NCBI GenBank assembly: GCA_964454845.1
Contig: CAYVVS010000001.1
Location: 87,273-151,272, forward strand
Reading direction: 5' to 3'
DNA: 64,000 nt
Origin: an uncultured Candidatus Saccharibacteria bacterium
Lineage (GTDB): Bacteria > Patescibacteriota > Saccharimonadia > CAILAD01 > GCA-016700035
Shown: positions 32,321 to 59,571 of the stretch, piece after piece
Layout of the letters: every line of letters starts with the position of its first letter
Numbering within the stretch: position 1 is the stretch's first letter
Program-made: the position numbers and the translations under genes
Notes under the pieces: model-generated
What the model saw: the letters and a program-made list of their open reading frames with translations, nothing else
Databases searched by the model: none
What the model was told of the DNA's origin: nothing

Positions 32321-32343
32321 GATACCACTGAACTCCGAGAAAA

Positions 32344-35983: not shown

Positions 35984-36047
35984 GGTAGTGTTCCTGGTTA
36001 ATTACGAACACTATACCGAACAAAAAATTACACCACAAGCTTGAGGG

Positions 36048-37109: not shown

Positions 37110-37148
37110 TGCTCTTATGATACCCGAACCAGAGAAAAAACGTAAGAG

Positions 37149-39516: not shown

Positions 39517-40535
39517 GAGTAGTCACCAACAAGGCTTTTGTAGAGAGTTTCGTAGCGGTGCACAAGCGTCTTTGAGGCATACCGTAGGGATAGCTCTTCT
39601 GATAATTTTTGTTGTTTTTTATACATCGTAGGCTTTGTGACGAGGTCTACTATGTGGGAAGCAAACTCTTTATTCGTTTTTCCCTGCAAATAGGTGCCGG
39701 CGAAAATATCCTTGTACACAGGGATATCTCGCAAGATTACCGGCAAGCCACAGGCGGCAGCTTCAACTACCACGAGACCAAAAGTTTCTTGGTAGGAGGG
39801 TAGCCAGAATACGTCTGCAAGGTGATACAGTTTGCGGGCTGTTTCAAGCTCTACAACCCCTGTAAATGTTACGTTTTCTGGGGCTGAGGCCATCATCTGC
39901 TCCATGTCGGCAGTTTTGTCGGCGAATTTGCCAAATGGGATGCCGCCAATCCAGAGAAAGTGGTAGTCGGTAAGTTGCTCGGCAACTAGGCGCCAATCAG
40001 CTACACCTTTGCGGGGCTGTACTTGGCCGCTACAGACGACCACTGGCTTATCGGCGGGTACATTGAAGTGACGACGCAGGGCTGAGAGCTCATGTTCGGC
40101 GGGACGCTTAAAGTGGGATAGCTCTACCATATTGGGAATGACGCTCATCGGTTTGTGAATGCCAAGTTCTCTTAGCTCCATCTCGGTATTGGGGCTCACG
40201 CAGATGATATGGTCGGCCTGATTGTATACAAACTTGAGATACCAACGCGCAAACGGAGCCCACAACTTAGCGGCCCTGAGGCTACCGATAAAAGATCCAG
40301 GCGTCACGTGGGCATTAATAACTCGTCCGTGGGTGGCCTGGCGGAATTTGCGCCAACCATATGGGCCGACAGTATGCACGTGCACAATATCGGTTGGCCG
40401 CTTAGAGTTAATTTTTACTGTGTAATCTGTATAGCTCTTGAGGGCATTTACATGCTCCTCGAAGGCCGTGTGAACACCGTGCCCGCGAACAGTAAATACG
40501 CTCTCGCTAACGACATTCACGCTAAGTTGTTTCAT
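39513..40535 (-). CDS. Glycosyltransferase family 4
   Basis: GT4 C-terminal domain (…FWLPSYQETFGLVVVEAAACGLPVI…). ATGA overlap with the upstream GT4. Confidence 0.65.
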   Translation of the reverse strand: MKQLSVNVVSESVFTVRGHGVHTAFEEHVNALKSYTDYTVKINSKRPTDIVHVHTVGPYGWRKFRQATHGRVINAHVTPGSFIGSLRAAKLWAPFARWYLKFVYNQADHIICVSPNTEMELRELGIHKPMSVIPNMVELSHFKRPAEHELSALRRHFNVPADKPVVVCSGQVQPRKGVADWRLVAEQLTDYHFLWIGGIPFGKFADKTADMEQMMASAPENVTFTGVVELETARKLYHLADVFWLPSYQETFGLVVVEAAACGLPVILRDIPVYKDIFAGTYLQGKTNKEFASHIVDLVTKPTMYKKQQKLSEELSLRYASKTLVHRYETLYKSLVGDYS

Positions 40536-44454: not shown

Positions 44455-46212
44455 CTAATTCGTAACTACGACAGTTTTTTCACTGGACATACTTTGTATG
44501 CCCATATTGGTAGTGATGTAGTTTTGGAGTATCCAGGTTCCTACGGTCAGGCCAGCAGTCGCAATATCTTGCTGCAGGCTTCGTGTGCCGCTTGGAGCGA
44601 GTCCGGTAGAAATACTAACCATTTGATTAGTAGAAATATTTATAGCACGTGTTGTGCATATTACATCAATAAGTACAGATGAACATGTGGAGTTAAATTT
44701 ATCATATTCATAACCTGTGAGCTCTGTATCGAGTTCAGTAAGGGATATGCGCGAGGCAGTGAGCGGTGAGCCGATAGTCGATGTAGCAGATACATCATTA
44801 AGGGTTGCATAAGTATTTAGAAGGCCATATCCATAGAGACTGGTGAAGTTTGCATTGTTCATGGACGCAAGTTTAGTTGTAGTTCCGGTTAGGGCAGCGC
44901 TGACTTGAGCGGGGGTGAGTGTAGGATTTTGCGAAAGCAGCAGTGCTGCGGCACCAGCAACCAGCGGACTAGAGAATGATGTCCCACTTAGGCCACAAGC
45001 ATTGAGGCCTGTTTGTGCAGAGTTCGTCCAGACAGTTGAGCACAGCCCAGAACCAGGAGCTACTAGGTCCAAATTACTCCCATAGTTAGAAAAATTAGCA
45101 AGCGAATTATTGGAGTTCGTGGCGCCGACTGCAATTACACTTGGGTAGCGAGCTGGGTAGGAAATACAGTTACAGCCATCGTTTCCAGATGCGGCCACCA
45201 CGACCACATCATTTTGTGTTGCGTAATCTATTTGTTCGGACACCAAAGGATCATCTGCTGCTGCACCTAAGCTCATATTAATAATGTCGGTACCATGATC
45301 TACTGCGTAACGTATGCCAAGTGCTACAGATATTGTGTAGCCATCTCCGTAATCATCAAGAGCTTGAATAGGGAGAATTTTTGCGCCCCAGCTCATGCCT
45401 GCTCCACCTGAGCCATTATTGGCTTGCGCTGCTATCAGGCTGGAAACAGCAGTGCCATGATAGGCTCCGCTTGCATTTGGGGCGGTTTGTCCCGCACTTA
45501 CATCGTTTGTATCACCGCTAAAATTCCAACCAAGGTAGTTATCTGTATATCCATCATTGTCATCGTCGATATTATTACAACGTTTATTTACAGATAGGGA
45601 GCGACTTGTACAGTTAGGAGCTGGGCCTTCATTGGTGGTCGCACCAACTTCTTCGCTGTTTTCAGCCCACTTACTTGCTAGGTCTGTGACTTGCACGCCA
45701 AAGCCAGTATCTATTACAGCTACTTTCACGGAGGAATTACCAGGTTGATGGTTCCAAGCTGGAAGAGTATTTGTATTTGTGAAGTGCCACTGATTAGTAG
45801 TGAGAGGGTCGGTTGGTGTCAGAAAAGCCGAGTAGCGCTGGTTAATAAATGTTCTTACTCCCGAAGAGGCAATGATATTTTGAGCGCGTACACCGTATAC
45901 GCCTAGGGCTTCGATCGGTGTTAGGTCTGACTCAGATAGTGCGTTTTGGGCTATAAACCTTTGTTTTGCGGCCTCACTTTCGAAACGAACTAGCTGTGGT
46001 AGCTGCTTTTCGTCTTTTTTTGCAAGCGGTTCAGCGAGTTTTGGGTTAGTGGAGTTTTTTGGCGATTGAGTGGCTTGGGTTGTAGGTGTGCTAGAAGTAT
46101 CTTGTCGGGACTGATGTTGGGGAGCCTGGGTGGGGGCAGCGAGAGCCGCCATTGATAGACACAATATGGTTACGTATATGAGGCTTCGCTGAATTTTATT
46201 TGGCTGGCTCAT
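44455..46212 (-). CDS. Secreted subtilisin-like serine protease (peptidase S8)
   Basis: Signal peptide. Catalytic triad motifs D (…VAVIDTG…), H (…AYHGTAVSSLIAA…) and S (…GLSGTSFSSPLVAGAAALLLS…). ATG overlaps the stop of the upstream giant kinase gene (ATGA on the minus strand). Confidence 0.8.
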   Translation of the reverse strand: MSQPNKIQRSLIYVTILCLSMAALAAPTQAPQHQSRQDTSSTPTTQATQSPKNSTNPKLAEPLAKKDEKQLPQLVRFESEAAKQRFIAQNALSESDLTPIEALGVYGVRAQNIIASSGVRTFINQRYSAFLTPTDPLTTNQWHFTNTNTLPAWNHQPGNSSVKVAVIDTGFGVQVTDLASKWAENSEEVGATTNEGPAPNCTSRSLSVNKRCNNIDDDNDGYTDNYLGWNFSGDTNDVSAGQTAPNASGAYHGTAVSSLIAAQANNGSGGAGMSWGAKILPIQALDDYGDGYTISVALGIRYAVDHGTDIINMSLGAAADDPLVSEQIDYATQNDVVVVAASGNDGCNCISYPARYPSVIAVGATNSNNSLANFSNYGSNLDLVAPGSGLCSTVWTNSAQTGLNACGLSGTSFSSPLVAGAAALLLSQNPTLTPAQVSAALTGTTTKLASMNNANFTSLYGYGLLNTYATLNDVSATSTIGSPLTASRISLTELDTELTGYEYDKFNSTCSSVLIDVICTTRAINISTNQMVSISTGLAPSGTRSLQQDIATAGLTVGTWILQNYITTNMGIQSMSSEKTVVVTN

Positions 46213-49200
46213 TGCTTTACCCCTGGTAGTGTTAGGGTAACTGTCGTGCCTTTTTTCTGAGTGGAGGTTATGCGCAATTCGCCTCCAATCTGCTCTAGGA
46301 GAACTTTATCTAGATAGAGATTAAGACCAATGCCTTCGTAGTCGAATTTCAGCACATCGGTAGCGCGTGAGAACGGTGTCATCAGTTGTGAGAGCTTTGC
46401 AGTATCGATGCCGATACCACTATCTTCAAATGTAATTGTAGTGCCGCGCTTGGTGTTTTTGGTGTACACTTTGAGGCTTCCGCCATCTTTATTGAACTTA
46501 ACGGCGTTATCTACGATTGAGTTTATCAGTTGCTCAATGGCTTCTTGGGTGAGTGGGGCAGTGATATTTACTGGTACCTGGCTTGTTACGGTTATTTTCT
46601 TATCTGATACCGCGTTTTTTTGGGCGTTGAGCGCAGATTCTATAACTGGCGCGATGCTAATTGGAACAGGGAGAACTTCGAGCGGTCGGGAGAAGTTGAT
46701 GAGTCGGCCAAATTTCTTGAGGACGTCTTCGAGCATGGTGCTGCCATTTTGCAGTGTTTTTTGTGCGGGATCGGTTTTTGGAATGTCTTTCGTTAAGGCC
46801 TTTACGAGCCCAAGGTCAGCATTAAGGTCGCTATAGCTTTGCGTAATAAAGGCTACTCGTCGTGCCAAAATATCAGCCTCTAGCGTGAGCTGGTGCTTGA
46901 GGGCATCGTGGGAAGCTTGATTGCGTTTATAAGAGTGCCATGAGAGGGCAAGTAAGCCAATTCCTAGTACTAACGCAGTAATTTGTGCAACGATTAACGC
47001 GAAACTGAGTGAATAACGATCTGTTGCGGTGAAGAGTAGATTAAGAATAAACAGAATAAGTACCACAATTCCAGATGGGACCACGACAAAGATACTGAGC
47101 AGAGGATTTTTGAGACGGAGCTTATCGAGCTCTGTTGTGCTTTCTGCAACGCGAGAGGTCGTTTTTTGGCTTTCGGTTACAAGTTTCCTAATATCATCGG
47201 CCAAGTTTTTGATAGCTAGGTTGAGTTTGTTGATATTCGTCTGTGGGACAGCTTTTGTTGAGGCGAGGAGCTCCACACTGGCCTGCAGGATGTTAACTGG
47301 AGTATTAAGGTAGTGACTAGTAAGGGCGACAAAGTTTTGGCTTGCCTCTTTGGTGCTGTGATAGCGTTCAATTATGCCGCGTACTTTGGCGATAGTGCGG
47401 TATTCAAGCCATGCCTGACGTGCGTAGAGTACCGCTAGAGCGATAAGAACAAGAATGATGAAGAATGGCAAAGCTAGGGCCACAGCGTTTGGTGTCATGC
47501 GTATGGTGTTCAATACCCCTGCAGGTATAAAGCCGGTGAGGAAATTTGATTCAACAGTGACTGGGGGTGTGTCTGCTTTAGGTATTTTTACACCTTCTGG
47601 CGGGTATTTAGGGAATAGCGGGTTAGGGAGCTTAGGCTCAGGCTGATTGGTTGGCGATGGGGACGGTGATGGACTTGGATTGCTTGAAGGCGATGGTGAT
47701 GGAGCAATAGAGGGGCTAGGAGTGGTATTCGTGGTAACGGTTGGATTAGGAGTTGGTGTACTACTAGGTGCAGTGTAGTTGTAGGTGGAAATCGAGATAT
47801 TGTTGAAGGGTAAGGTGTAGATATCTGTCGAAGAAGAAGGCTGACTAAAATCTCCTCCAAACGCCATGAAAATGCCTGATAGAACCTCAAACTGGTTATC
47901 AAACTCTACTTTTTCTCGATGAGCATCCATAAAGTTAATTCCAAAGCTTTTAAAACTAGCCCCAGTGGGGTAGCTAGAGTTAGCGGTGCCAATTATGTCA
48001 TATGTTAGTGACTCACCTTGTTCTAAGGTGATATTCGTAGTAGGTAGACACACTGCAATCTTGCTAGTCGGGTAGAACTGTGCAAGATAGTCAAACTCAC
48101 TGGAGTTCCAATCTGCACAAGCTACAGAACTGGAATTTGTCGTTGAGAAGGTGAAGTTGGTGGGTATGATGTGTAATGATGCTGGAATTACATTTTGTAG
48201 CGTGGTGGTGCCCGGACCGTTATTCGTGAGGGTGTTTCGGTACGTAATGGTGTCACCGGCCTTAACTTCTCCCGAGTTAAGTAAGGTTGTATTGATTGAG
48301 ACATCTATTTCATAGCTTAATTCAGCTTCATTGCTAGGTTCACTCACCCCATCATTACTCACTGCATAGACTCGGAAGTAGTAGTGGGTGGCGGGGTTTA
48401 GCCCTGTAATGTCTTCATATGTGTTAGGCGACACAGTATTAGGGTAGGGTGTCCAGTCGCTATCGTTAGCGCTTCGAAACTCAATTAAGTAATCGGTAAC
48501 TGGACTACTTCCTTGGTTGGATGGAGCACTCCAGTGGAGGGTTGCATTCGTGCCGTCAGCGTTATCTATACTTAGGTTTTCGGGTGGTCCAGGAGGTGTT
48601 ACTGCACAGGCTGATGTAGCAAAAGAAACCGTTTGGCCCACGCCTCCCAGTACATCATTGCTTGTAGTTGAAAAGGCGCGTACATAGTAGTTTGTGTCAC
48701 ATAGTAGGCTATCCGCTGTAGTAAGGCTGATGCCATATGAGAACTTCTTGATAGGGTCATTTGAGTACATATTCACCACATAGGCATTGTCGCTCCTGTC
48801 GAATGAAATATCTGAGGCGTTAATAAGCTGGTTAGTGCCGTTGCCAGTTGAACCCCAAGAGTCTATGTAATTACCGTACGAGTTAAAGCGCTGTATGCGA
48901 TTATCGGTATTATCGGTCGTATATAAATTATCTTGGCTGTCAGTCTCTATGCCTGCAATCTCTGTAAATTGCCCGTTGCCTGTACCTGCAGAGCCCCATT
49001 GCAAGAGGTAATTGCCGTTGCTATCAAACTTTTGAATACGATAGTTATTTATGTCATATACGTAAACATTATTGGCTGAATCTATCGCTATGTGCCAAGC
49101 ACCAGAGAATTGCCCGTTGCCTGTACCTGCAGAGCCCCATTGCAAGAGGTAATTGCCGTTGCTATCAAACTTTTGAATACGATTAGCATTGATGTCAGAG

Positions 49201-52200
49201 ATGTAGACATTGTTACTTGCATCGATAGCGATTCCTCTAGGGCCTACGTAGCTAAACTGACCGTCTCCAGAGCCTTGAGAGCCCCAATCTAGAATGTAGT
49301 TTCCTTCGGAGTCAAACTTTTGAATACGATGATTGTATGTGTCGACGACATAAATATTGTTATAGCTATCAATGCCCATTGCTCTCGGGCTGTTGAATTG
49401 ACCGGGTGCCGATCCGCAGCTGCCCCATTCACTCAGAATGCCACCCGAGGAGTCGAATTTGCTCACTTTGCAGTTGTTCATATCTAGTGTGTAAGCATTG
49501 TCGCTGGCGTCATGCTCGATAGCGAGTAGCCCTAGGTTTTGCCCGTAGCCACTTCCGTATTCACCCCAAGATTCGGCTTCGGTATATGCTGGGGGTGTGG
49601 AATCGATATCCAAGTCTGTTCCGGTGTTAAAGTTGGGGTCGGTGCTCCATTGAAAGCCACGAGAAGCTAGCCATCGAGGGCTGACAAGCCCCGAGAATGT
49701 TGCCGAGTCGGCGTCGATATCAGAAGGTTCAAGAGTCGTGACTTGCGGGGTACAGCCAACTGTTGTAAAGGTTGCATCGTCACCATATCCTGTACTGTTC
49801 CAGTCTACAGCGAAAGCCCGGTAATGGTAGGTGGTACCGCACTCCAGCGATGAGGCAGTGAGGCTGTAGCTGCCCATGGTAAATGGCGGACTTTCAAGCG
49901 AATATTTGATTATAGCGTCACCATAATTGACTGCATATACATAGCCATTCGAGTCAACTTCAATGTCATTTAGTGCTGAGATCTCAGAATGTTCAGTAAA
50001 TGAGTGGAGTAGTAATGAGTCGCCATCCGGGCTAAAGCGCTGAACTTGCTTCGAGAACTCTGATGTATAAATTGATCCATCTGGAGCAAAGGCAACACCG
50101 TTAAGGCCTGTAAATTGACCAGCCTCAGATCCAGTATCCCCCCAGTGATTGAGTGGGTTACCATTTGTATCAAATGTCTGCACCCGTGCTCCTTCCCACT
50201 CGGCCGTAGCAATTATCCCATCGCGGTAACTAACGTCATTTAGCCCATAGAATTGGCCTACGCCGGTTCCGAAATTGCCCCATTGCAAGAGGTAATTGCC
50301 GTTGCTATCAAATTTTTGGATCCGGTTATTCCCGCTGTCTGCAACGTACATATTATTTGCTTCGTCGAAAGCAATACTATAAGGAGTGGAAAACTGTCCA
50401 TTACCAGATCCGTAGATTCCAATAATTGCAATAAAATTACCATTAGAATCAAACTTTTGAATGCGATGGTTTAAGGCATCAACAACGTAAACGTAGCCAT
50501 TCGTATCTACGGCAATTTCGCGTAGATCGCCAAATTGCCCAGGTCCTGATCCGGGTGAACCCCATGTAAGTAGGTGGTTTCCATTTGCATCAAGCTTTTG
50601 CACGCGAGTGTTATACCATTCGACAGTATAGATATCTCCTGTAGGGGCAATTGCTATATGGGGTGATTGCAGCTGTCCGTCTTGGTCCCCCCATTCGCTT
50701 ATACTTTGCTCAAACTGAAGTTGACTTGTCGCAGGTTCTGAGAGCATACTGCCGTAATTTGTTGTCTTGCCATACTGTATGCCACGAGAGATTAGGGGTG
50801 ATCCACCGGTAGAGGTGATGCTTCCATGGAGTGTCGCTGCCGAACTTGAAATATTTGAAGAAGATAGAGTTGCAACCTCCAGCCCTGTACTGCTACAAGC
50901 ATCTGTTGTAAAGGATACATCGTTTCCATAGGAGGTACCATCGCCATTTGTCGCGAAGCTACGGTAGTGGTAAGTGGTTCCGCAAGTTAAGTTAGTGAGT
51001 GTCGATGCAAAGCCCTCTGGGTTAAAGGTGGCTGGCTGGTTGAATGTTTTGATGCTGACACTGCCTAGATCGGCTATAACAACCTGGTCATAGGAGTTAA
51101 TGGCAATGCCCCAAGGCGACCAAAACTGCATATCTCCAGGGCCAACGCTCCCAAACTGGGTGATATATGAGCCGGCGTTGCTGAATTTCTGTACCCTAGC
51201 ATTTATCGCATCTTGAACATAAATGTTGTTATTTGAATCTACTGCTAAATGATTAACATTTGAACTGCTAAACTGGTTATTTCCACCTCCAGAGGAGCCC
51301 CATTTCGTAATATATGAGCCGTCTGAGCTAAACTTCTGAATCCGCGGGTTATCGTAGTCAATAATGAAGATATTATCGTAGCTGTCCACAACCATATCGC
51401 CAATCCCATAAAACTGGCCATTTGACGTGCCATATGAGCCCCAGCTTTGGATTAAGTTAAAGTTGCTATCAAATTTTTGTACAAAATTATACGTGTCACC
51501 AGTATAGATATTGCCTTGAGAGTCAACTTCGATAGATATATTGAAGCCAGGTGAGTTTGGAAAACTCCAGGTATTGAGGAGTTCACCGGTAGCTGAATAT
51601 TTACGAACGCCCCCTGTACCTACAACGTAAGCGTTGTTGAGTCCGTCAAAGGCAACGTCATCTTGAGCCCAATCTTGATCTATAGTGTATTTATAGTTAC
51701 CGTATGCATCAAATTTCTGTATGCCAGAGCTTAGTTGGTCATTCTGAACGTACATATTATTGAGGTTATCAACGTAGACTGCATCAGGAGCAGAAAAGGC
51801 CGTATTTCCAAATTGCGTTTGGTAGTTTCCAGTATCATCGAAGACTTGCACGCGACTGTTATAGAAATCGACAGTGTAAATCTTGTCGTTTGTGTTGTTG
51901 TAGATAATACCGCTAACAAATATAAACTCGCCATCACCATTGCCGTACGTACCCCATTGATTATTGAATGCTCTATTGCTATAGATGAATTCTTGTACTC
52001 TTTGATTGCCGAGTGATGTGCCGGCCGAATCCGTAACATATATTGAGCCGCTAATCGGTGAGAAGTTAATCTTCTGCGGATAGCCAAACTGCTTATTGCC
52101 TGAGCCATATGAACCCCACTGGGAGTGGTAAGTCCCGGTGGTGGTAAATTCTTGGATTCGTGAATTGAACGTGTCAACCACTAGGATGCGGTCGAGAAAA

Positions 52201-54158
52201 TTGTCGTAAGTGATGCCCCGCGGTACATTAAACTGCCCATTGCCCGATCCAGAAGATCCCCATTTGGTGATGAACGTACCGTTTGCATCAAATTTTTGAA
52301 CACGGTTATTGTTTGAATCAGTAACATACACATTGCCACCCGAGTCGATTGCGATAGAATTTGGCCCGTTAAATTGTCCATTTCCCGAGCCGTCTGATCC
52401 CCATTTGGTGATGAACGTACCGTTTGCATCAAATTTTTGAATTCGGTTATTATTAGTGTCCGCTACATAGATGTTTCCTGATGTATCGATTGCGATACCG
52501 TTTGGCGCTCTCAAGTCTCCGTCGCGAGAGCCGGTCCAGTTCTGGTCTATTGGGTTTCCTATTGTTCCGAGCAGATTGCCGTTGACATCATATTTTTTAA
52601 TGTTGTTCGTGGTATATCGGCTGTCAGTAACATAGATATTGCCACTTAAGTCTTGAGCTATGTCTTGAGGTCGATTGAGTCCAGTTCCAGTTGTATTACT
52701 GGCGAGCGTAAAACTAGAAGGAGAGTTGGGCGTAAGATTTACAGTATTGCCATAGCTTGTATCGTTGCCCCACTGGAAGCCGCGAGCTGTTGTTGCAGTA
52801 TTGAGCGTGCTCCATTGTGTGCCGTTAAGAGTAGCGAGATTTTGGGTTAGATCCGTTGCTGCACCGGTTGTTACAGATGGGGTAGTGCGCAAGGTGGGGT
52901 AGCCACCTAGTGTTGTTTTCCATACAACGTTAAAGTCCCAGGTGTTGAGTGGAGTTGCAGCTGAGTTTCCGAAGAAATAGTTGGGGGAACCAGAACTTAT
53001 GTTTACACTAGTGCACTGGGCCGCTACATTACTAACGCACTCAGTGGCCGTCGTACGAGAAACGTCAAAAAAGTTATTTCTCCCAGAAATTGCTCCGGCG
53101 TCTAAATTTTCGGCCCTTCCTACGAGACCACCCTTATAGCTAGGAGCACCGGAGGTAGTTATTTGAGTGGCTGCAAAACTATTTTCAACAACAGTCCCGG
53201 TGTTACTCATGCTAGCGATGAGTCCACCCCCTGTGTCTCCCCAGCCATAGCCGTTGTTTGTTGAGATACTACCGTGAGCATATGAGTTAGAAACCTTACC
53301 GTATTGCAGGTCTGCTACAAGGCCACCTGCTTTGTCCCCAGTAAGCACGGCATTTGCATAACTGTTAGTGATGCTAGATTGGTAGGCGGATGATGATTCA
53401 ACTATCATTCCCACAAGGCCACCTACCTGACCTCCAGTGGAGCTGACTGTACCGCTATAGCTTGATTGGTCTAGCTGGCTATTTTGTAGCAAGCTTCCGA
53501 TTAGGCCACCGCTGCCTGCACCATTGACGGAACCGGATGCGTTTACCTGTCTAACTGTAGTTGCATTGCTGGCTACACCTACGACTACGCCAGTATAGCC
53601 ACAGTTCGTGACAGGGCACCCTATTATTGATGGCTTGGTGAATACGATGTTTTTGATCAGAGCTGAATTTGTATAGCCAAAAAGACCCGAATGAGCATTG
53701 CTTGTTCCGCTGCTCTTATTGATGTAGAGGTTGCTGATTCTTAGATTACGTCCATCTAGTGAGCCGCTAAATGGATTGCTGCTATTTTGACCAACCGGGA
53801 TAAATCCGGTATTGGAGTTCCAGCTAGAGCTAGCTGAACAATCAATATCACTAACGAGTGCGTAGTGACTCGTGAGAGATTGCTGCATTTCTTGCAGCTG
53901 AGAGCAGTTGGCAATTTGGAAGGGGTCTAGCGTAGTGCCAGTACCTGAGCCAGAGAAAGCCTTGCTCCCGTGTTTATCATTAATAAAACCCGCATACAGT
54001 AAGGTAATTAGGATGATTATTACGGCTCCCACAGCCGTAATAATCTTTAAGTTATTTTTCTTTTTTAGGGGGCGTACTGCCCGTTCCACAGATGAATAGA
54101 CCCAAATTGGTCCAATGGGCGTTTTTATGGTTTTCAACTTGGTCTTTTTTTGCGGCAT
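46209..54158 (-). CDS. Giant (2649 aa) membrane histidine kinase with GLUG-repeat / NHL beta-propeller / FN3 ectodomain
   Basis: N-terminal basic segment and TM anchor. GLUG-type repeats (SGLFG, GGLIG, GGLVG…). Many NHL repeats (…YVTDSNNNRVQKFDANGTFITKWGSSGSGNGQF…), interspersed FN3-like units, a Pro/Ser-rich stalk and TM segments. Cytoplasmic H-box-like SHYLNTPVNIL and complete HATPase_c (N-box DNAVKF, G1 DSGIGI, G2 GIGLNL). Confidence 0.8.
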   Translation of the reverse strand: MPQKKTKLKTIKTPIGPIWVYSSVERAVRPLKKKNNLKIITAVGAVIIILITLLYAGFINDKHGSKAFSGSGTGTTLDPFQIANCSQLQEMQQSLTSHYALVSDIDCSASSSWNSNTGFIPVGQNSSNPFSGSLDGRNLRISNLYINKSSGTSNAHSGLFGYTNSALIKNIVFTKPSIIGCPVTNCGYTGVVVGVASNATTVRQVNASGSVNGAGSGGLIGSLLQNSQLDQSSYSGTVSSTGGQVGGLVGMIVESSSAYQSSITNSYANAVLTGDKAGGLVADLQYGKVSNSYAHGSISTNNGYGWGDTGGGLIASMSNTGTVVENSFAATQITTSGAPSYKGGLVGRAENLDAGAISGRNNFFDVSRTTATECVSNVAAQCTSVNISSGSPNYFFGNSAATPLNTWDFNVVWKTTLGGYPTLRTTPSVTTGAATDLTQNLATLNGTQWSTLNTATTARGFQWGNDTSYGNTVNLTPNSPSSFTLASNTTGTGLNRPQDIAQDLSGNIYVTDSRYTTNNIKKYDVNGNLLGTIGNPIDQNWTGSRDGDLRAPNGIAIDTSGNIYVADTNNNRIQKFDANGTFITKWGSDGSGNGQFNGPNSIAIDSGGNVYVTDSNNNRVQKFDANGTFITKWGSSGSGNGQFNVPRGITYDNFLDRILVVDTFNSRIQEFTTTGTYHSQWGSYGSGNKQFGYPQKINFSPISGSIYVTDSAGTSLGNQRVQEFIYSNRAFNNQWGTYGNGDGEFIFVSGIIYNNTNDKIYTVDFYNSRVQVFDDTGNYQTQFGNTAFSAPDAVYVDNLNNMYVQNDQLSSGIQKFDAYGNYKYTIDQDWAQDDVAFDGLNNAYVVGTGGVRKYSATGELLNTWSFPNSPGFNISIEVDSQGNIYTGDTYNFVQKFDSNFNLIQSWGSYGTSNGQFYGIGDMVVDSYDNIFIIDYDNPRIQKFSSDGSYITKWGSSGGGNNQFSSSNVNHLAVDSNNNIYVQDAINARVQKFSNAGSYITQFGSVGPGDMQFWSPWGIAINSYDQVVIADLGSVSIKTFNQPATFNPEGFASTLTNLTCGTTYHYRSFATNGDGTSYGNDVSFTTDACSSTGLEVATLSSSNISSSAATLHGSITSTGGSPLISRGIQYGKTTNYGSMLSEPATSQLQFEQSISEWGDQDGQLQSPHIAIAPTGDIYTVEWYNTRVQKLDANGNHLLTWGSPGSGPGQFGDLREIAVDTNGYVYVVDALNHRIQKFDSNGNFIAIIGIYGSGNGQFSTPYSIAFDEANNMYVADSGNNRIQKFDSNGNYLLQWGNFGTGVGQFYGLNDVSYRDGIIATAEWEGARVQTFDTNGNPLNHWGDTGSEAGQFTGLNGVAFAPDGSIYTSEFSKQVQRFSPDGDSLLLHSFTEHSEISALNDIEVDSNGYVYAVNYGDAIIKYSLESPPFTMGSYSLTASSLECGTTYHYRAFAVDWNSTGYGDDATFTTVGCTPQVTTLEPSDIDADSATFSGLVSPRWLASRGFQWSTDPNFNTGTDLDIDSTPPAYTEAESWGEYGSGYGQNLGLLAIEHDASDNAYTLDMNNCKVSKFDSSGGILSEWGSCGSAPGQFNSPRAMGIDSYNNIYVVDTYNHRIQKFDSEGNYILDWGSQGSGDGQFSYVGPRGIAIDASNNVYISDINANRIQKFDSNGNYLLQWGSAGTGNGQFSGAWHIAIDSANNVYVYDINNYRIQKFDSNGNYLLQWGSAGTGNGQFTEIAGIETDSQDNLYTTDNTDNRIQRFNSYGNYIDSWGSTGNGTNQLINASDISFDRSDNAYVVNMYSNDPIKKFSYGISLTTADSLLCDTNYYVRAFSTTSNDVLGGVGQTVSFATSACAVTPPGPPENLSIDNADGTNATLHWSAPSNQGSSPVTDYLIEFRSANDSDWTPYPNTVSPNTYEDITGLNPATHYYFRVYAVSNDGVSEPSNEAELSYEIDVSINTTLLNSGEVKAGDTITYRNTLTNNGPGTTTLQNVIPASLHIIPTNFTFSTTNSSSVACADWNSSEFDYLAQFYPTSKIAVCLPTTNITLEQGESLTYDIIGTANSSYPTGASFKSFGINFMDAHREKVEFDNQFEVLSGIFMAFGGDFSQPSSSTDIYTLPFNNISISTYNYTAPSSTPTPNPTVTTNTTPSPSIAPSPSPSSNPSPSPSPSPTNQPEPKLPNPLFPKYPPEGVKIPKADTPPVTVESNFLTGFIPAGVLNTIRMTPNAVALALPFFIILVLIALAVLYARQAWLEYRTIAKVRGIIERYHSTKEASQNFVALTSHYLNTPVNILQASVELLASTKAVPQTNINKLNLAIKNLADDIRKLVTESQKTTSRVAESTTELDKLRLKNPLLSIFVVVPSGIVVLILFILNLLFTATDRYSLSFALIVAQITALVLGIGLLALSWHSYKRNQASHDALKHQLTLEADILARRVAFITQSYSDLNADLGLVKALTKDIPKTDPAQKTLQNGSTMLEDVLKKFGRLINFSRPLEVLPVPISIAPVIESALNAQKNAVSDKKITVTSQVPVNITAPLTQEAIEQLINSIVDNAVKFNKDGGSLKVYTKNTKRGTTITFEDSGIGIDTAKLSQLMTPFSRATDVLKFDYEGIGLNLYLDKVLLEQIGGELRITSTQKKGTTVTLTLPGVKQ

Positions 54159-54322
54159 TAGTATTAGAATTTATGCGTGTTTCTGTATTACTCTCTACTT
54201 TACATATATATGACTCTAGGGACAATAGTTTTTATGCTTAATTCAGCTCTTTTGACGCAAAAAAGTATTCATTTTGCTCTCCTTGGTGTGATATAGTGAT
54301 AGTGAGTTAGCATAAGCGTTTC

Positions 54323-57300
54323 ATGCGCAAAAAAGTCATGACAAAATCCAAAAAGCAAATCCCACAGAAATCTACTCGTTTAGTTGACGCAGTTCGTCAG
54401 TCGAGTGTTGCTGTGCGTAAAAACTCTCAATCGTTTGAGGCTATTCAACACAAGACGAGGCTCGGTGTAGTTTACATTGCAGTAAAGGACTTTGTTCGAC
54501 GTGCGCCTGAGAATCTTAAGGTGGGTGTGAGCAGAGCGGGGAGAAGCAGGCAGCGCATACTTGGAAAAATAGCTGCTAGGCTACCAAAGATAGCTCTTCC
54601 ACAATTTCAAGCTTCCAACAGGTTAAAAAGCGTTGTAGCCAGTACATCATTAGTTGTCATGATGGTACTGATGTTCTTTAATATGGGGGTCCATAATGTT
54701 GCGCGCGCTTTTGATACGCTCAATCAATCCGATTGGAGTGGCGGACAAGGTATAAGTCCGGTTAATCAGTATGAGGAGAAAGATGGCAATGTTGTAACTG
54801 CTACAGCGGGTCAGTTGAGCTTGAGTGGTGGAGCTTCTGCCTGGTGCAGTACCGCAAACTGCAATACGAATTGGACACGACGCAAGGTTCTCGTACCACG
54901 TGGCGGCATAAATGACACGGATATGACTTATGCGCAAGTTCAATTGACTGTTGAATATGAAAATGAAATGAAGTCTGATTTTAGCGACTTACGTTTTACG
55001 AATCGGTATAGCAATCAAGATGTTCCGTATTGGGTTATGCGTAAGACAGACGGTGTATCTGCGACTGTCTTTTTGAAGATACAGCTTTCAAGTGGTGGCG
55101 TGGATAGTCATACGTATATGTACTACGGAAATGCGGCGGCCACCTCTCTATCGTCTAAGGGAGGCGTGTTTGATCTGTATGACTCTTACGACACGGGTAG
55201 CCTTCAGGGTAACTATTTTGATATCGATGGTGCTGATGGGGAGATTGATGGACTTGGAGGTAAGCTAACCCGGCTTGATTATGGTATTAGTCACCCCGGC
55301 CCATTTTCTCGAGATCGCACTCGAGTATACGAAGCCGACCTTAAGTTAGATCTCTCTTCATATACATGTGGCGACTCTGCCGGTGTGGGATCTATAGAAA
55401 TAGGCTTCCAGGGTGGTACGGCAGAGCTCTACTTTGATATGCCTGCAAATTGCGATAGCAATGGCAAATATTGGAGGGTTTCTGGTGCTACTAACGGGAG
55501 TGAGTCGGTAAATTTTCCAGACTCTACTGCCTATCATTTTACCTCGAATATATATGTGCGCCTGCGGTTAGTGGCGTATCAGGATGGCGGGCATGCTTAT
55601 TTCTTCAGTCGGGATAATGGAGAAACATATACGGCTTTCCCCGGTGTTAATACCGGTATAAATAGTGATAATTTTCCTACGGAATATTACTTAAGCAATG
55701 GCAATGCTGTAACGACATATCGTCATGTGGTTGCGTACCAGGGACTACTGGATAGAAGTACGTCGCTTAATTTTGATGCATCTGTTGAAGAATATGTAAA
55801 TGGCAGAGTCGGTGGATTTACGAGTGTTGAGTATGACTTAGGCTCTGACAGGACGTTCTTTGGAGATCTAAATATTACCTACACCGGTACGGGTGCTGTC
55901 GGAGTGTACATATCGGGGTCTGACACCCCAGGAGGTACACTTGATTCAATCTCTATGTATGTTAGTTGTCCGTTCGTTAAAAATACCACAGCTATTTCTT
56001 CGGATTGTCTACCCGCAGGGAGTCGTTACGTGAGGTACTATTTGCTGCTTTCTTCTGATGCTGCAAATAGCCTCGTTATTCAGGATGTATCACTTGAATA
56101 CTCAATTGATGTAGACAGTCCAACGATAGTCAGTGGTGTGCAGACGCGTAGAACGAGTAATAATGCGGTAATCTCGACCGGCTGGATAAATGAGACACCA
56201 AAATTTAGTTGGAATGCCTCTGTCGATGGTGTAGATGGTTCGGGCATTGCTGGATATTGTTTGTATTTTGGTACTGATAGCGGCGCTGATCTAAGTACAA
56301 CCCAAGGTTTGTTACCTACAACAAGCCCATATGATACTGGAGGATTATGCCAATACGCCATACAGGCCACGTCGCTAGACTTGTCGCAACTAACATTACA
56401 GAGTTCGCTGACTACAAATACACAATACCACCTAAAAATACAGCCATTTGATAATGCTGGGAATCTGGCGACCGCAACAACGAGTGCTCTTGGCTATGAT
56501 ACTGATACTCCTGGACCATATACGACTGCGTTTGGGCCTAACGGGTATGTCAATTCGCCAATACAGCCAGTAAACTGGGCAAAAGACGCACCAGCGATGG
56601 TAGTTGACGATGGTGGTTCCGGGGTTGCGGGCATTAAATATTGTGTCTTTAGCTACGCGACTGGTGATGGGTGTAGTCTATTTGGTGGTTCGCCATCTGA
56701 TTTTCCTTGGTATGGACCGGCTCGCACCAATAGCCTTCCAAACGATCCTATAGATGTATATAGTTTTTCGAGCGGTGGTTTTAACCTTGTAGACGATGAT
56801 TTGGCCCGTATGACCGATGAAGGGCTTAATGGTGTTGTTTTGCTCCTGATTGATAACGCGGGTAACGTTGCGCAATTTGGTTCAGGTGGAGCTCCTGTAA
56901 TTATTAATGTTACTCAGCAGCCTCCATCAGCTCCGCAAAATTTACAGGTAAGTCCTAGTAGTAATAATGAAAACGCGTTCTCATTCACATGGGCAGCTCC
57001 CGCGACCGCATCAGGCCCAACTGGTCAAGTGGATTATTGTTGGACGGTAAACGTATCCATAGCTTCCGATGGCAGCAATTGTAATTGGACCGGTCAAGGT
57101 ATTACACAGCTCGCACAGGGAGCTTACGCCACGCAACAGGGTAGCAATACACTGTATTTGATGGCCAAGGATCAGTCGCAGAATTTTTCTAATGCCAATG
57201 TGACGAGTGTGAATTTCACAGCAACAACTGTGGCGCCCGGGCCACCTCAGAACCTCGAGCTTTCAGATGTGTCAATTCGCGCTACGAGTAGCTGGAAGAT

Positions 57301-58771
57301 TGCGCTTAGCTGGAGTGCCCCGCAGCTTCCCGGTTCCGGAATTGCGAGCTATAAGATTTATCGCTCAACCAATAATGTGAACTTTACAGAAGTAGGAACA
57401 ACATCAAGTACGAATCTAAGCTTTATCGATTCTGGCCTCTCGCAGACTGACTACTATTATTATGTGAAAGCTTGTGATGATGCCGATAGTTGCAGTGTGG
57501 CAAGTAATACGGAGACCAAGTATCCAAACGGGCGTTATACTACCCCGGCTCGTTTGACTGACGATACGGATCAACCAAAGATTAGGGATATTGGTACGCG
57601 TAAAGCTACTATTTATTGGTTTACGGATAGGGCAAGTGATTCAAAGATTGCCTATGGCACTGCACCTGGTCAGTACTTCCCAGAAGAGGTCGGGAATTCA
57701 ACACAGGATTCATCTCATGTTGTAAATCTTACAAACTTAGAGCCAGGTAAGACGTATTACTATGTGGCTCGTTGGACTGACGAAGATGGGAATACGGGCA
57801 TTTCCCAGGAGAGGGCGTTTACAACACTGCCGGCACCAACTGTGCGGGAAGTTTCAGCTTCAAACCTTACAATAAGCTCTGCTGCTGTTAATTTTACAAC
57901 TGAAAATGCATACAAGGCTAATGTATACTTCGGTACCAGCGATGCTTTTGGGGGCGTGAAGAGCATAAATACATCAATTTCTTCATCAAGCTACAGCTTG
58001 AGCTTGAATGATTTGCAAGATGGTCAAAAATATTTCTACAAAATAAGCACCGTAGATGCGGATGGCTATGAATATCAGGGTGATATATACAGTTTTACTA
58101 CTCCAGCTCGTCCAAAAATTACGAATTTGCGCTTTGAGACGGTAGAGGGTGAGCCGAGCAGTACCCAAAAAATTGTATGGACAACCAATGTGGCCACTAC
58201 AAGTGAAGTGGTGTATGGGTTGGTTGGGGGAGAGCAATCTGAAGCTGTGAGCTCCACTCTGGTGACGGAACACGAAGTGATAGTTCGTGGTTTGGCGGAC
58301 AACGCTGATTATGAGTTGGTTGCGCGTTCCCGCGACGCTGCCGGTAACCTCGCGGTTTCTGATAAACAGTTCTTTCAAACAGCCGAAGATACACGCGCGC
58401 CAAAAGTCTCAGAATTTAAGGTTGAGACGGATATCCGTGGAACTGGTGGAGAGGCACGTGGGCAGATAATTGTATCGTGGCGCACAGATGAGCCGGCTAC
58501 TAGCCAAGTGGCGTTTGCTAAGGGGCGTACAACAGAGCTCAGTAACCGTTCCTCGCAGGATACACGCTTAACTACTGAGCATGTCGTGGTCGTGTCTGAC
58601 CTTACTACTTCAAGTATCTATCAAGTGCAGGCAGTGTCGGCTGATAAGGCCGGTAACGAGTCGTTTTCCGATGCTCAAACAGCAATTATTGGTCGCGGTA
58701 CTGAAAATATCTTCAGTATCATCTTTAATGCGCTGCAAGCTATCTTTGGCTTTGGGGATACGAATTTATGA
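54323..58771 (+). CDS. Giant surface protein 2 (1482 aa; paralog of giant 1 C-terminal module)
   Basis: Basic N-terminal ~100 aa and one TM helix (SLVVMMVLMFF). Distinct beta-sandwich N-terminal domain (…DLRFTNRYSNQDVPYWV…). From about aa 630, a ~850-aa FN3-rich module collinear and similar to the C-terminal module of giant 1, same C-terminal tail (…IFSIIFNALQAIFGFGDTNL). Stop overlaps the next ATG. Start may be 54338. Confidence 0.8.
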   Translation: MRKKVMTKSKKQIPQKSTRLVDAVRQSSVAVRKNSQSFEAIQHKTRLGVVYIAVKDFVRRAPENLKVGVSRAGRSRQRILGKIAARLPKIALPQFQASNRLKSVVASTSLVVMMVLMFFNMGVHNVARAFDTLNQSDWSGGQGISPVNQYEEKDGNVVTATAGQLSLSGGASAWCSTANCNTNWTRRKVLVPRGGINDTDMTYAQVQLTVEYENEMKSDFSDLRFTNRYSNQDVPYWVMRKTDGVSATVFLKIQLSSGGVDSHTYMYYGNAAATSLSSKGGVFDLYDSYDTGSLQGNYFDIDGADGEIDGLGGKLTRLDYGISHPGPFSRDRTRVYEADLKLDLSSYTCGDSAGVGSIEIGFQGGTAELYFDMPANCDSNGKYWRVSGATNGSESVNFPDSTAYHFTSNIYVRLRLVAYQDGGHAYFFSRDNGETYTAFPGVNTGINSDNFPTEYYLSNGNAVTTYRHVVAYQGLLDRSTSLNFDASVEEYVNGRVGGFTSVEYDLGSDRTFFGDLNITYTGTGAVGVYISGSDTPGGTLDSISMYVSCPFVKNTTAISSDCLPAGSRYVRYYLLLSSDAANSLVIQDVSLEYSIDVDSPTIVSGVQTRRTSNNAVISTGWINETPKFSWNASVDGVDGSGIAGYCLYFGTDSGADLSTTQGLLPTTSPYDTGGLCQYAIQATSLDLSQLTLQSSLTTNTQYHLKIQPFDNAGNLATATTSALGYDTDTPGPYTTAFGPNGYVNSPIQPVNWAKDAPAMVVDDGGSGVAGIKYCVFSYATGDGCSLFGGSPSDFPWYGPARTNSLPNDPIDVYSFSSGGFNLVDDDLARMTDEGLNGVVLLLIDNAGNVAQFGSGGAPVIINVTQQPPSAPQNLQVSPSSNNENAFSFTWAAPATASGPTGQVDYCWTVNVSIASDGSNCNWTGQGITQLAQGAYATQQGSNTLYLMAKDQSQNFSNANVTSVNFTATTVAPGPPQNLELSDVSIRATSSWKIALSWSAPQLPGSGIASYKIYRSTNNVNFTEVGTTSSTNLSFIDSGLSQTDYYYYVKACDDADSCSVASNTETKYPNGRYTTPARLTDDTDQPKIRDIGTRKATIYWFTDRASDSKIAYGTAPGQYFPEEVGNSTQDSSHVVNLTNLEPGKTYYYVARWTDEDGNTGISQERAFTTLPAPTVREVSASNLTISSAAVNFTTENAYKANVYFGTSDAFGGVKSINTSISSSSYSLSLNDLQDGQKYFYKISTVDADGYEYQGDIYSFTTPARPKITNLRFETVEGEPSSTQKIVWTTNVATTSEVVYGLVGGEQSEAVSSTLVTEHEVIVRGLADNADYELVARSRDAAGNLAVSDKQFFQTAEDTRAPKVSEFKVETDIRGTGGEARGQIIVSWRTDEPATSQVAFAKGRTTELSNRSSQDTRLTTEHVVVVSDLTTSSIYQVQAVSADKAGNESFSDAQTAIIGRGTENIFSIIFNALQAIFGFGDTNL

Positions 58772-59571
58772 GTCAGTCTCTTGTTTCTTTCCGCGATGTC
58801 TCGCGTGATTTTCGTGCTATAGATGGTACGGTGAGTGTTTTGAAGGATATAAATTTTGAGGTAGAACCTGGTAGTTTTACTATTATTTATGGACCTTCTG
58901 GTAGTGGTAAGACAACAATTTTGAATATGATTTTGGGTCTTTTGCCGCCAACCAAGGGGGATGTCGTGGTGGCCGGGCAAAGCTTGTATGATCTCAATCA
59001 AGATGGTCGTGCAAAGTTTAGGGCCGCACATTATGGTGTGGTGAGCCAAGTGAATAACTGGGTCCTCAGTATGAATGTGCAGGAGAATGTTGCCCTGCCG
59101 TTATATCTTTCGGGTACTCCACGTCATGAAGCACTTAAGAAGGCTGCGGCTAGCATTGAGCGTGTTGGGCTTGCGAAGTATATGCGCTACAATCCGGCAG
59201 TGTTGTCAATTGGTCAACAACAGCGCATTTCTATGGCGCGAGCTACCGTAAAAACACCGCAACTTTTGATAGCTGACGAGCCGACCGGCAACCTTGATAC
59301 CACGAATGGCGACATGATTATGCAGCTGATGACCAGCTTTAGAAATCATGAAAATACTACAGTGATTTTGGTTACACACAATCTTGATTATCTTTCTTTA
59401 AGTAGCCATAGATTATTCTTAAAAGATGGCGTGCTCTCAATTGATGAGGGCGGCTACCAATCCGAAGAAGAGCGTCGTCGCATGCTGATGACAAGCTTCT
59501 TGGAGGTGAATAAGGCGGCTGAAATACAACCAGCAAAAGTTCCTGTAAAGAGAGGTGGTAAACGTGGCTGA
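58768..59571 (+). CDS. ABC transporter ATP-binding protein, MacB/LolD/FtsE family (cassette 2)
   Basis: Walker A GPSGSGKTT, LSIGQQQRIS signature, Walker B LLIADEPT. Paralog of 12303-13142. ATG overlaps the giant-2 stop (ATGA). Confidence 0.85.
   Translation: MSQSLVSFRDVSRDFRAIDGTVSVLKDINFEVEPGSFTIIYGPSGSGKTTILNMILGLLPPTKGDVVVAGQSLYDLNQDGRAKFRAAHYGVVSQVNNWVLSMNVQENVALPLYLSGTPRHEALKKAAASIERVGLAKYMRYNPAVLSIGQQQRISMARATVKTPQLLIADEPTGNLDTTNGDMIMQLMTSFRNHENTTVILVTHNLDYLSLSSHRLFLKDGVLSIDEGGYQSEEERRRMLMTSFLEVNKAAEIQPAKVPVKRGGKRG

Follow-up and report, generated by a model that had tools for sequence, protein, structure and literature searches.

How can a protein with an extracytoplasmic part on the scale of an adhesin also be a sensor histidine kinase, and what kind of kinase core would such a protein carry? 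The question is raised by a gene for a 2649-aa protein in a stretch of Saccharibacterial DNA of 64,000 nucleotides, the whole of which is referred to here as the window. The analysis indicates that the gene encodes a genuine and probably active receptor kinase whose core topology is new.

Gene structure and domain organization

The frame called in the original prediction is real and uninterrupted: ORF analysis gave one unbroken frame of 2649 codons with an ATG start, 7,950 bases in length, divergent from the gene for giant surface protein 2 (giant 2) with the 164-bp gap described (Table 1). An exact look-up of the protein returned no identical record, and a promoter and terminator scan of the kinase locus found no more sites than in shuffled sequences. 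Hydropathy revealed four transmembrane (TM) segments in keeping with the positive-inside rule. With the N-terminus inside, the order is TM1, ectodomain, TM2, hairpin A, TM3, TM4, hairpin B, and the catalytic ATP-binding (CA) domain, which agrees with the proposed membrane histidine-kinase-type protein with a huge extracytoplasmic part.

Table 1. Positions of the giant kinase gene, the segments of its product, and the neighboring genes in the window.
Feature	Position	Strand	Basis or remark
S8 subtilase, 585 aa, mycosin-like, signal peptide	44455..46212	-	ATGA: start codon overlaps kinase stop
Whole kinase gene, 2649 aa	46209..54158	-	N-in signal anchor, ~2,170-aa ectodomain, 3 more TM helices, split kinase core
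CA domain, residues 2502-2645	46224..46655	-	N-box N2551, G1 D2579xGxG, F-box PFSR 2595-2598, G2 G2609xG
Hairpin B, residues 2409-2489: His-less alpha1B continuous with TM4, alpha2B running into CA	46692..46934	-	Conservation, profile alignment
TM3-TM4 hairpin, residues 2356-2408	46935..47093	-	TM3 carries conserved Pro2361 and Asn2373
Hairpin A, residues 2256-2346: alpha1A with H-box SHYLNTP, and alpha2A	47121..47393	-	HisKA, profile alignment, AF2; cytoplasmic, between TM2 and TM3
Codon of His2282, predicted phospho-acceptor	47313..47315	-	His in 185/188 family sequences; coordinates checked
TM2, residues 2225-2246	47421..47486	-	Hydropathy, AF2
Pro/Ser/Thr-rich stalk, residues 2131-2200	47559..47768	-	Read off sequence
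DUF11-like Ig-type segment (weak), residues 1952-2013	48120..48305	-	Pfam 17.7-20.3 bits, cutoff 24.6 not reached
fn3 domain, residues 1858-1946	48321..48587	-	Pfam 63.1 bits
NHL block 3, 6 blades, residues 1530-1807	48738..49571	-	Pfam, blade HMM
NHL block 2, 6 blades, residues 1153-1412	49923..50702	-	Pfam, blade HMM; Thin/TRIM71/PknD propeller matches
NHL block 1, 12 blades, residues 494-1032	51063..52679	-	Pfam, blade HMM; suffices for two six-bladed propellers
GLUG-type right-handed beta-helix, ~residues 68-420, IgA1-protease-like	52899..53957	-	Sub-threshold Pfam Glug; phmmer; AF2 and Foldseek
TM1/signal anchor, residues 38-58	53985..54047	-	Hydropathy scan; Lys/Arg-rich cytoplasmic N-terminus ahead
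Divergent intergenic region, 164 bp, kinase versus giant 2	54159..54322	.	ORF boundaries
Divergent operon	54323..60847	+	Giant 2, ABC_tran ATPase, MacB_PCD/FtsX permease
Giant surface protein 2, 1482 aa	54323-58771	+	ORF analysis
ABC_tran ATPase	58768-59571	+	Pfam
MacB_PCD/FtsX permease, 430 aa, four-TM MacB type	59555-60847	+	Pfam

The ectodomain opens with the region in which GLUG repeats had been proposed. At the sequence level the proposal did not reach significance in Pfam (Glug, 16.3 bits; cutoff 20.5), and phmmer gave a weak match to an IgA1 protease (7uvl_P, E 7e-4), but the predicted fold is that of the IgA1-protease beta-helix. AF2 modeled residues 59-470 with a pTM of 0.77, fragment residues 10-300 lying mostly at pLDDT 80-95, and Foldseek matched this model to 3n6z (E 6.5e-8, TM 0.53/0.63) and further to 6xjb (3e-6) and 7uvk (5e-6). 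The GLUG module is also present in other giant members of the family described below.

Multiple NHL propeller blocks had been foreseen, and Pfam supports them with 243.6 bits. An HMM of the blade, built from the giant kinase's own sequence, counts exactly 24 blades in three blocks of 12 + 6 + 6, which suffices for four six-bladed propellers; block 2 finds its counterparts among the six-bladed NHL propellers of the PDB (E-values down to 6e-60), one of them the sensor domain of PknD. The suggested FN3-like spacers hold in part, with one bona fide fn3 domain, while the linkers between the propellers carry only a weak Pur_ac_phosph_N-like signal (Pfam, E 0.03). The predicted Pro/Ser-rich stalk is present ahead of TM2 and presumably spans the cell wall.

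A histidine kinase core split by a membrane hairpin

In the textbook picture, a sensor histidine kinase is an obligate homodimer, and the hairpin with the His runs straight on into the catalytic domain; in ordinary kinases the DHp hairpin is contiguous with the CA domain and the H-box is roughly 105-120 aa from the N-box. In the giant kinase, His2282 and Asn2551 are separated by 269 aa with two TM helices between them, and a similar spacing (261-271 aa) is found across 110 family representatives. The H-box of the original prediction is present but was misplaced there: instead of falling within the C-terminal 250 aa, it lies 368 aa from the C-terminus, beyond two TM helices. The C-terminal HATPase_c domain was called correctly (residues 2538-2645; Pfam 67.7 bits, cutoff 26.4). 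HisKA, in turn, remains below its Pfam cutoff in the giant kinase itself (22.9 bits against 26.9, over profile positions 3-35 only), but is matched in hairpin A of 21 of 26 relatives. It is matched in hairpin B of one relative only; the segment equivalent to hairpin B in L034 scores 33.9 bits. Pfam found no Hpt match in the giant kinase, whose His sits on a HisKA-type helix, and no NCBIfam model reached its own cutoff on the kinase module.

The His and every ATP-binding or catalytic box of the family are under strong conservation. Among 188 family sequences, His2282 and Tyr2283 are each kept in 185 and Asn2551 in 187, the glycines of G1 and G2 are kept in 176-187, and the His, N, G1, F, and G2 boxes as a whole are 92-99% conserved in sequences that are otherwise ~25% identical. 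Hairpin B possesses no conserved His in the family alignment. The residue at H+1 of the giant kinase is Tyr2283, an invariant Tyr in place of the Glu/Asp that takes part in catalysis in canonical HisKA kinases, so that the chemistry of the kinase might be different or weak.

Alignment of the family profile with known kinases locates the break. Residues 8-65 of HK853 (alpha1 with its His) fall on module positions 53-112; its residues 66-248 (alpha2 and CA) fall on positions 261-437. HK853 is thus divided into two alignment blocks, which implies that the canonical DHp is interrupted by ~150 residues comprising alpha2A, TM3, TM4, and alpha1B. Hairpin A aligns with the H-box of HK853 and of SrrB, and alpha2B together with CA aligns contiguously with HK853 alpha2 and CA. 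A duplication may have given rise to hairpins A and B, as a weak hhalign match between the two suggests (E 0.02 over 42 columns).

The AF2 model of the kinase module, built on a 90-sequence alignment, has a pLDDT of 90.4 and a pTM of 0.82. Its helices span module positions 20-50, 52-97, 102-142, 152-174, 182-252, and 260-285, followed by CA, with hairpin A formed by helices 52-97 and 102-142. Mean-field DCA on the 188 sequences was noisy—its top pair, TM2-CA, is physically implausible—and was used only for CA-CA enrichment and helix-register peaks, as supportive evidence. For a membrane-anchored bundle, the peaks lie close to expectation (198 versus 199 for alpha1A-alpha2A; 354 versus 357 for alpha1A-alpha2B), although the contacts fit packing between chains equally well. 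Structural neighbors of the module include DivL and RetS, both non-canonical kinases.

Distribution of the family

The kinase module marks out a family restricted to Saccharibacteria; it was found at ~35 genomic loci, of which nearly all carry a Saccharibacteria or Patescibacteria label. The ThrRS encoded in the window has matches to Patescibacteria/Saccharibacteria proteins only. An exhaustive profile search was needed to recover the extent of the family and yielded ~1,371 cluster representatives with E<=1e-30; when the family alignment was used in a word-indexed search for homologues, generic kinases crowded the candidates and only two members were gained. Ectodomains vary from member to member, and among the best 150 representatives 46 are longer than 1,000 aa (maximum 3,989 aa), so giant forms recur. 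To call the fusion of such an ectodomain to a kinase “very unusual” was consequently too strong, at least within Saccharibacteria. The nearest relative, L010 (3050 aa), has a module 54% identical to that of the giant kinase, the same fused layout, and an S8 gene next to it. The TM-split layout is common to this large family, which has no name, and we found no description of it for sensor kinases: neither the family nor a TM-split DHp was found in the literature on Saccharibacteria/Southlakia histidine kinases, Patescibacteria sensor kinases, and giant surface proteins.

Neighboring genes and candidate partners

Judging by the ATGA overlap, the kinase gene is translationally coupled to the gene for the S8 subtilase, and the kinase-S8 order recurs in L010. 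On the other side, the ABC_tran ATPase and MacB_PCD/FtsX permease lie 4.6 kb from the giant kinase, behind giant 2; most family members are flanked by an ABC transporter of this type. In short-form loci such a divergent pair directly adjoins the kinase in 16 of 24 cases and is found at <=4 kb in 19; the linkage is looser in giant forms, with no such transporter within 10 kb at L012, L013, L034, and L037. The subtilase coupling and the ABC link are absent from the original prediction, as are the non-canonical core and the Tyr at H+1.

That no receiver gene would be found nearby was confirmed and extended. Pfam detected none within ~17 kb on the low-coordinate side or up to the window end (~10 kb) on the other, and tblastn with seven receiver sequences against the whole 64-kb window gave nothing at E<0.1. 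Nor was a cognate response regulator found beside the relatives in ~35 loci. Four receivers do occur nearby, in L009, L011, L022, and L036, and were rejected as dedicated partners because each adjoins its own PAS-HisKA kinase. Stand-alone receivers occur in related genomes; those at L009 and L011 belong to a type of 134-142 aa.

Proposed mechanism and alternative explanations

We consider it somewhat better than an even chance that the giant kinase represents a group of Saccharibacteria-specific TM receptor histidine kinases with a conserved non-canonical transmitter and a freely exchangeable ectodomain, the following mechanism included. The ligand, partner, and oligomeric state given here are inferred. 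Hairpins A and B, tethered by TM3-TM4, would pack as an antiparallel four-helix bundle within one chain, imitating the DHp bundle that ordinary kinases assemble from two subunits, and the CA domain, suspended from alpha2B, would phosphorylate His2282 on alpha1A. A ligand bound to the ectodomain, with its GLUG beta-helix, four NHL propellers, and wall-crossing stalk, would shift TM2 and hence alpha1A, and the displacement of alpha1A relative to the other three helices would switch the kinase. Cultivated Saccharibacteria are epibionts, and since the source of this DNA belongs to that group, the likeliest ligands would be surface polymers or proteins of host or neighbor cells. Sensing of contact or of a partner cell is a reasonable inference, given that the DNA is Saccharibacterial, that domains of adhesin type are present, and that PknD sets a precedent for NHL domains as sensors. 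More speculatively, the phosphoryl group might pass to an unlinked stand-alone receiver, the module might also talk via TM3/TM4 to the family's companion ABC transporter of the MacB/FtsX type, and processing of the ectodomain might fall to the co-translated S8 subtilase. A bolder form of this proposal, which we hold only tentatively, is that the whole family consists of pseudo-dimeric single-chain TM histidine kinases. An ancestral DHp would have been duplicated, or split, with a TM hairpin in the middle, leaving a single polypeptide with one His and one CA to provide the four helices of the phosphotransfer bundle. Such kinases could signal as monomers and, in genome-reduced epibiotic Saccharibacteria, would serve as the main host-contact receptors together with MacB-type ABC machines and the subtilase.

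Several other explanations have to be set against the single-chain bundle. The giant kinase could be a conventional homodimer in which alpha2A-TM3-TM4-alpha1B is an insertion or extra anchor, the bundles form between subunits, and an orphan response regulator is encoded elsewhere. Most characterized sensor kinases are indeed obligate transmembrane homodimers (PMC10359499), the catalytic motifs are canonical throughout except at H+1, and both the DCA contacts and the stand-alone receivers of related genomes would suit such an arrangement; we nevertheless regard it as rather unlikely. The companion transporter invites a different reading, which we find improbable: an ABC-coupled kinase in the manner of BceS-BceAB, whose module reads the cycle of the MacB/FtsX-type transporter via TM3/TM4 while the ectodomain acts chiefly as adhesin or scaffold. 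It is at odds with the lack of any BceR-type regulator, with the permease (430 aa and four TM helices, against the ten of BceB), with the giant-form loci that have no transporter within 10 kb, and with the 2,170 aa outside the membrane, where BceS has almost nothing.

Two further explanations would deny the protein a signaling role or a natural origin. A surface adhesin or enzyme scaffold mounted on a degenerate, non-signaling kinase remnant would account for the Tyr in place of the catalytic acid at H+1, the His-less DHp adjoining CA, the lack of a partner regulator in the 64-kb window, and the presence of DivL and RetS among the structural neighbors. Conservation of the boxes amid ~25% identity is, however, not the pattern expected of a relic, which makes a pseudokinase very improbable. 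That an assembly or frameshift artefact made one frame out of an adhesin gene and an independent kinase gene is scarcely credible. Broken frames in the relatives L039 and L040 are all that was found in its favor, whereas the frame here is continuous, TM2 and the stalk link both parts logically, and the same fusion recurs in L010 and in dozens of other representatives; on the sequence evidence, the kinase domain is not a separate gene.

Implications

If the single-chain reading is true, a His hairpin split by a membrane hairpin and rebuilt as a four-helix bundle in one chain would be a new solution to transmembrane signaling, and the family would be a natural experiment on cis and trans phosphorylation and on the need for dimerization. 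A receptor able to signal as a monomer would spare its huge, adhesin-like, and rapidly exchanged ectodomain the need to dimerize. Together with the links to a MacB-type transporter, a giant surface protein, and a subtilase, such exchangeable giant ectodomains make these proteins prime candidates for host perception by epibionts. CPR bacteria, taken as a group, carry the fewest kinases per genome, 0.29 per 100 genes (PMC10805038). Domain-based censuses probably miss the present family, because public NCBI records name its members “ATP-binding protein” only.

Comparison with known systems

The giant kinase resembles HisKA-type TM kinases (HK853, EnvZ, PhoR, WalK, SrrB) in its N, G1, F, and G2 boxes in the CA domain, in an H-box of the form S-H-x-L-x-T-P on the helix that follows a TM helix, and in strong profile and fold matches. 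It differs from them in the ~150 residues (return helix, two TM helices, and a His-less alpha1-like helix) that the family has between the H-box helix and alpha2 with CA, and further in its H-to-N-box distance of 269 aa, the Tyr at H+1, the sub-threshold Pfam HisKA, and the lack of an adjacent response regulator. BceS of the Firmicutes BceS-BceAB systems has two TM helices and an extracellular loop of almost nil, with BceR in its operon and a ten-TM BceB permease, whereas the giant kinase crosses the membrane four times, has a huge ectodomain and no regulator, and is accompanied by a permease of the four-TM MacB type. The beta-helix of IgA1 protease and ZmpA-type proteins is shared as a predicted fold of residues ~68-360 with a weak sequence match; here, no metalloprotease domain comes next, and the beta-helix heads a receptor ectodomain instead.

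PknD from Mycobacterium tuberculosis is alike in its build, with an extracellular six-bladed NHL propeller, one TM helix, and a cytoplasmic kinase (1rwi_B, E 6e-16), but it is a Hanks-type Ser/Thr kinase with a single propeller, while the giant kinase combines four propellers and other modules with a histidine-kinase core. CheA is soluble and dimeric and bears its His on an HPt (P1) domain, unlike the giant kinase, in which TM helices tether the HisKA-type alpha1 helix that bears the His. EL346, a soluble and monomeric HWE/HisKA2 kinase, caps its DHp-like helices with a LOV domain; in its place the giant kinase would use a second, covalently linked hairpin.

Domain architecture of the window kinase

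The gene is one unbroken frame of 2649 codons with an ATG start (46209–54158, minus strand); its stop codon shares bases with the start codon of the S8 subtilase gene that follows (GCAATGAGC, with the overlap ATGA), and 164 bp separate it from a divergent 1482-aa ORF, as originally predicted. A hydropathy scan gave four strongly hydrophobic segments (residues 38–58, 2225–2246, 2353–2375, and 2384–2407). An N-in topology, which fits the charges flanking these segments, leaves residues ~59–2224 outside and the part after TM2 inside, except for the ~8-residue TM3–TM4 loop.

Pfam detected NHL repeats (243.6 bits), a single fn3 domain and, weakly, a DUF11-like segment in the ectodomain. A blade HMM built from the same protein counted NHL blades at exactly 24, grouped as 12, 6, and 6 and sufficient for four six-bladed propellers; the spacers between propellers are weakly Ig/PAP_N-like. 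Block 2 matched six-bladed NHL propellers in the PDB (E down to 6e-60), among them that of PknD, a receptor kinase of M. tuberculosis in which the propeller is the sensor domain. The predicted GLUG repeats missed the Pfam Glug threshold (16.3 versus 20.5 bits), but were recovered by a phmmer match to IgA1 protease and by fold: the closest structural neighbors of an AF2 model of residues 59–470 (pTM 0.77) are IgA1-protease beta-helices (3n6z, E 6.5e-8; 6xjb; 7uvk).

The HATPase_c domain is unambiguous (67.7 bits, Pfam). The H-box of the original prediction is present as SHYLNTP (His2282), but it does not adjoin HATPase_c and lies instead between TM2 and TM3. His2282 precedes Asn2551 of the N-box by 269 residues, with two TM helices and an extra helical hairpin intervening. 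Pfam HisKA scored slightly below cutoff on the His2282 segment (22.9 bits) and gave no match on the segment directly preceding the catalytic ATP-binding (CA) domain. We call the His-bearing helices (alpha1A, alpha2A) hairpin A and the His-less pair before CA (alpha1B, alpha2B) hairpin B.

Features of the window kinase and of its modeled kinase module
Feature	Position	Frame	Source	Remark
fn3 domain, single	1858–1946	window kinase residues	Pfam	
Pro/Ser/Thr stalk	2131–2200	window kinase residues		N-terminal to TM2
TM2	20–50	module positions	AF2 model	
alpha1A	52–97	module positions	AF2 model	contains His78
alpha2A	102–142	module positions	AF2 model	
TM3	152–174	module positions	AF2 model	
TM4	182–252	module positions	AF2 model	range includes alpha1B, with which TM4 is continuous
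alpha2B	260–285	module positions	AF2 model	
CA	298–441	module positions	AF2 model	

Extent and conservation of the family

The C-terminal 445 aa retrieved a small number of full-length matches. These are without exception Saccharimonadales proteins with HATPase_c as their only Pfam domain and, like family members generally, publicly annotated as “ATP-binding protein”; no NCBIfam model reached its cutoff on the module. In a scan of species-representative genomes the full module turned up at ~35 loci, almost all of them labeled Saccharibacteria or Patescibacteria. By exhaustive profile searching, 1,371 cluster representatives passed E ≤ 1e-30, and each of the best 150 spans the whole module. The ThrRS of the window likewise matches exclusively Patescibacteria/Saccharibacteria proteins (best, 95% identity).

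Across 188 family sequences, otherwise ~25% identical, His2282 and Tyr2283 (codon 47310–47312) are each kept in 185, Thr2286 (H+4) in 184, Pro2287 in 182, Asn2551 in 187, and the G1 and G2 glycines in 176–187. This pattern argues for an active kinase rather than a relic. TM3, with a conserved Pro and Asn, and TM4 occur in every member, and the H-box to N-box distance stays at 261–271 aa (110 representatives). The second-helix position matching the His is variable and never His. Per-member Pfam scans placed HisKA in hairpin A of 21 out of 26 members. A single member, at locus L034, has it in hairpin B, which matches the entire HisKA model (33.9 bits), yet without the His.

Giant forms and exchangeable ectodomains

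Among the best 150 of the 1,371 representatives, 96 are ≤750 aa, 8 are 750–1000 aa, 36 are 1000–2000 aa, and 10 exceed 2000 aa (maximum 3989 aa). The closest relative, at locus L010, is a 3050-aa protein which we regard as ortholog-like because its module is 54% identical to that of the window kinase and an S8 subtilase, 56% identical to that of the window, follows 2 nt after the kinase gene. Its ectodomain carries NHL and five fn3 stretches; other giant members at genome loci (1008 to at least 3672 aa) have fn3 and Glug (L012), fn3 (L037), or no recognizable domain (L034), and the GLUG module is also N-terminal in other giants. Giant forms with differing ectodomains thus recur, so that the predicted ectodomain–kinase fusion is real and the ectodomain modular. 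At two loci (L039, 7–7610; L040, 3830–11475) the giant-ectodomain frame stops before the kinase module, which resumes in a different frame or ORF; these may be pseudogenes or split genes, or reflect sequencing errors. Short-form paralogues of 654 and 612 aa stand in tandem at L005 (2592–6735), and MAG CAYSMD01 holds two large paralogues (L009, L010), so a genome can carry several such receptors.

Genomic neighborhood

The mycosin-like S8 subtilase (44455–46212, minus strand) has a signal peptide, is translationally coupled to the kinase gene, and may process the kinase ectodomain. An ABC_tran + MacB_PCD/FtsX pair directly and divergently adjoins the short form in 16 of 24 loci and lies within 4 kb in 19. 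In the window this pair (58768–60847) sits behind giant 2 in the divergent operon; by NCBIfam it groups with FtsE/LolD/MacB-type systems, below every equivalog cutoff. The three-gene cassette of giant surface protein, ATPase, and permease is duplicated (6089–14410 and 54323–60847): giant 1 (2070 aa; Laminin_G_3, fn3) and giant 2 (1482 aa; DUF2341, fn3) are 45% identical across their C-terminal ~900 aa, the ATPases 51%, and the permeases 44%, which suggests that this organism uses MacB-type machines for its giant surface proteins. Last in the giant 2 operon is a 747-aa protein (60850–63093, plus strand; NIDO, Ig-like, CarboxypepD_reg) with no NCBIfam match. The region is rich in envelope functions: 18726–20794 and 28657–40535 encode a MurT/GatD-like pair, of the kind that amidates peptidoglycan, and a series of glycosyltransferases of the GT4 and MGDG-synthase types, and a bactofilin lies at 33176–33712.

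The prediction that no response regulator lies nearby held: Pfam on the flanking ORFs and tblastn over all 64 kb with seven receiver queries found no receiver domain in the window. Among relatives, receivers occur within 7.5 kb of the family gene in only four loci (L009, L011, L022, L036), stand-alone and each beside its own PAS-HisKA-HATPase kinase, cytoplasmic at L009 and L011. At these last two (11339–19230 and 11371–13728) a mid-sized family kinase is followed by a Crp-type regulator (cNMP_binding + HTH_Crp_2). A stand-alone receiver of this type is a candidate shared phospho-acceptor.

Proposed signaling mechanism

In the AF2 model of the module (90-sequence alignment; pLDDT 90.4, pTM 0.82), only alpha1A, alpha2A, alpha1B, and alpha2B are long enough for a bundle, and they run down-up-down-up with both loops far from the membrane, as a single-chain bundle requires; we infer that they form one. 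The textbook expectation for sensor kinases is a bundle formed between subunits (PMC10359499). Mean-field DCA on the 188 sequences, noisy and with intra- and inter-chain contacts indistinguishable, gave best registers of 198 for alpha1A–alpha2A and 354 for alpha1A–alpha2B, where a membrane-anchored bundle predicts 199 and 357; alpha1B–alpha2B, alpha2A–alpha1B, and alpha1A–alpha1B are 7–12 or less off. The intramolecular arrangement is favored by the model.

The mechanistic steps beyond domain content, topology, and conservation are inferred, and the most economical route would run from ectodomain through TM2 and CA to an unlinked receiver. An external ligand, probably on a cell surface, would be bound by the ectodomain; TM2 would shift alpha1A within the four-helix bundle; CA, carried on alpha2B, would phosphorylate His2282; and the phosphoryl group would pass to the receiver. 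A Bce-like coupling to the MacB-type machine would be compatible with the genomic linkage to the transporter and with the polar residues conserved in TM3.

Comparison with known kinases

In a literature search, neither a kinase whose H-box helix is separated from CA by TM helices nor a Saccharibacteria split-core family was found described. CPR bacteria are reported to have the lowest kinase frequencies (PMC10805038), so this family may be a substantial, overlooked component of CPR sensing.

Against PDB sequences, the family profile aligned to HK853 in two pieces, contiguous in HK853 and ~150 residues apart in the family: HK853 residues 8–65 (alpha1, His260) correspond to module positions 53–112, and residues 66–248 (alpha2 and CA) to 261–437. 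SrrB aligned likewise. In the family, the canonical His-bearing hairpin (DHp) thus breaks off behind alpha1, where a return helix, a pair of TM helices, and an alpha1-like helix lacking the His intervene. Seen another way, the core consists of two DHp-like hairpins: the first has the His but lacks CA, and the second has CA but lacks the His. The two hairpins align marginally (hhalign, E 0.02), in a register that sets the H-box over the pseudo-H-box. HisKA kinases carry Glu/Asp directly after the phospho-acceptor His, whereas the family has Tyr at H+1, though Thr at H+4 is retained.
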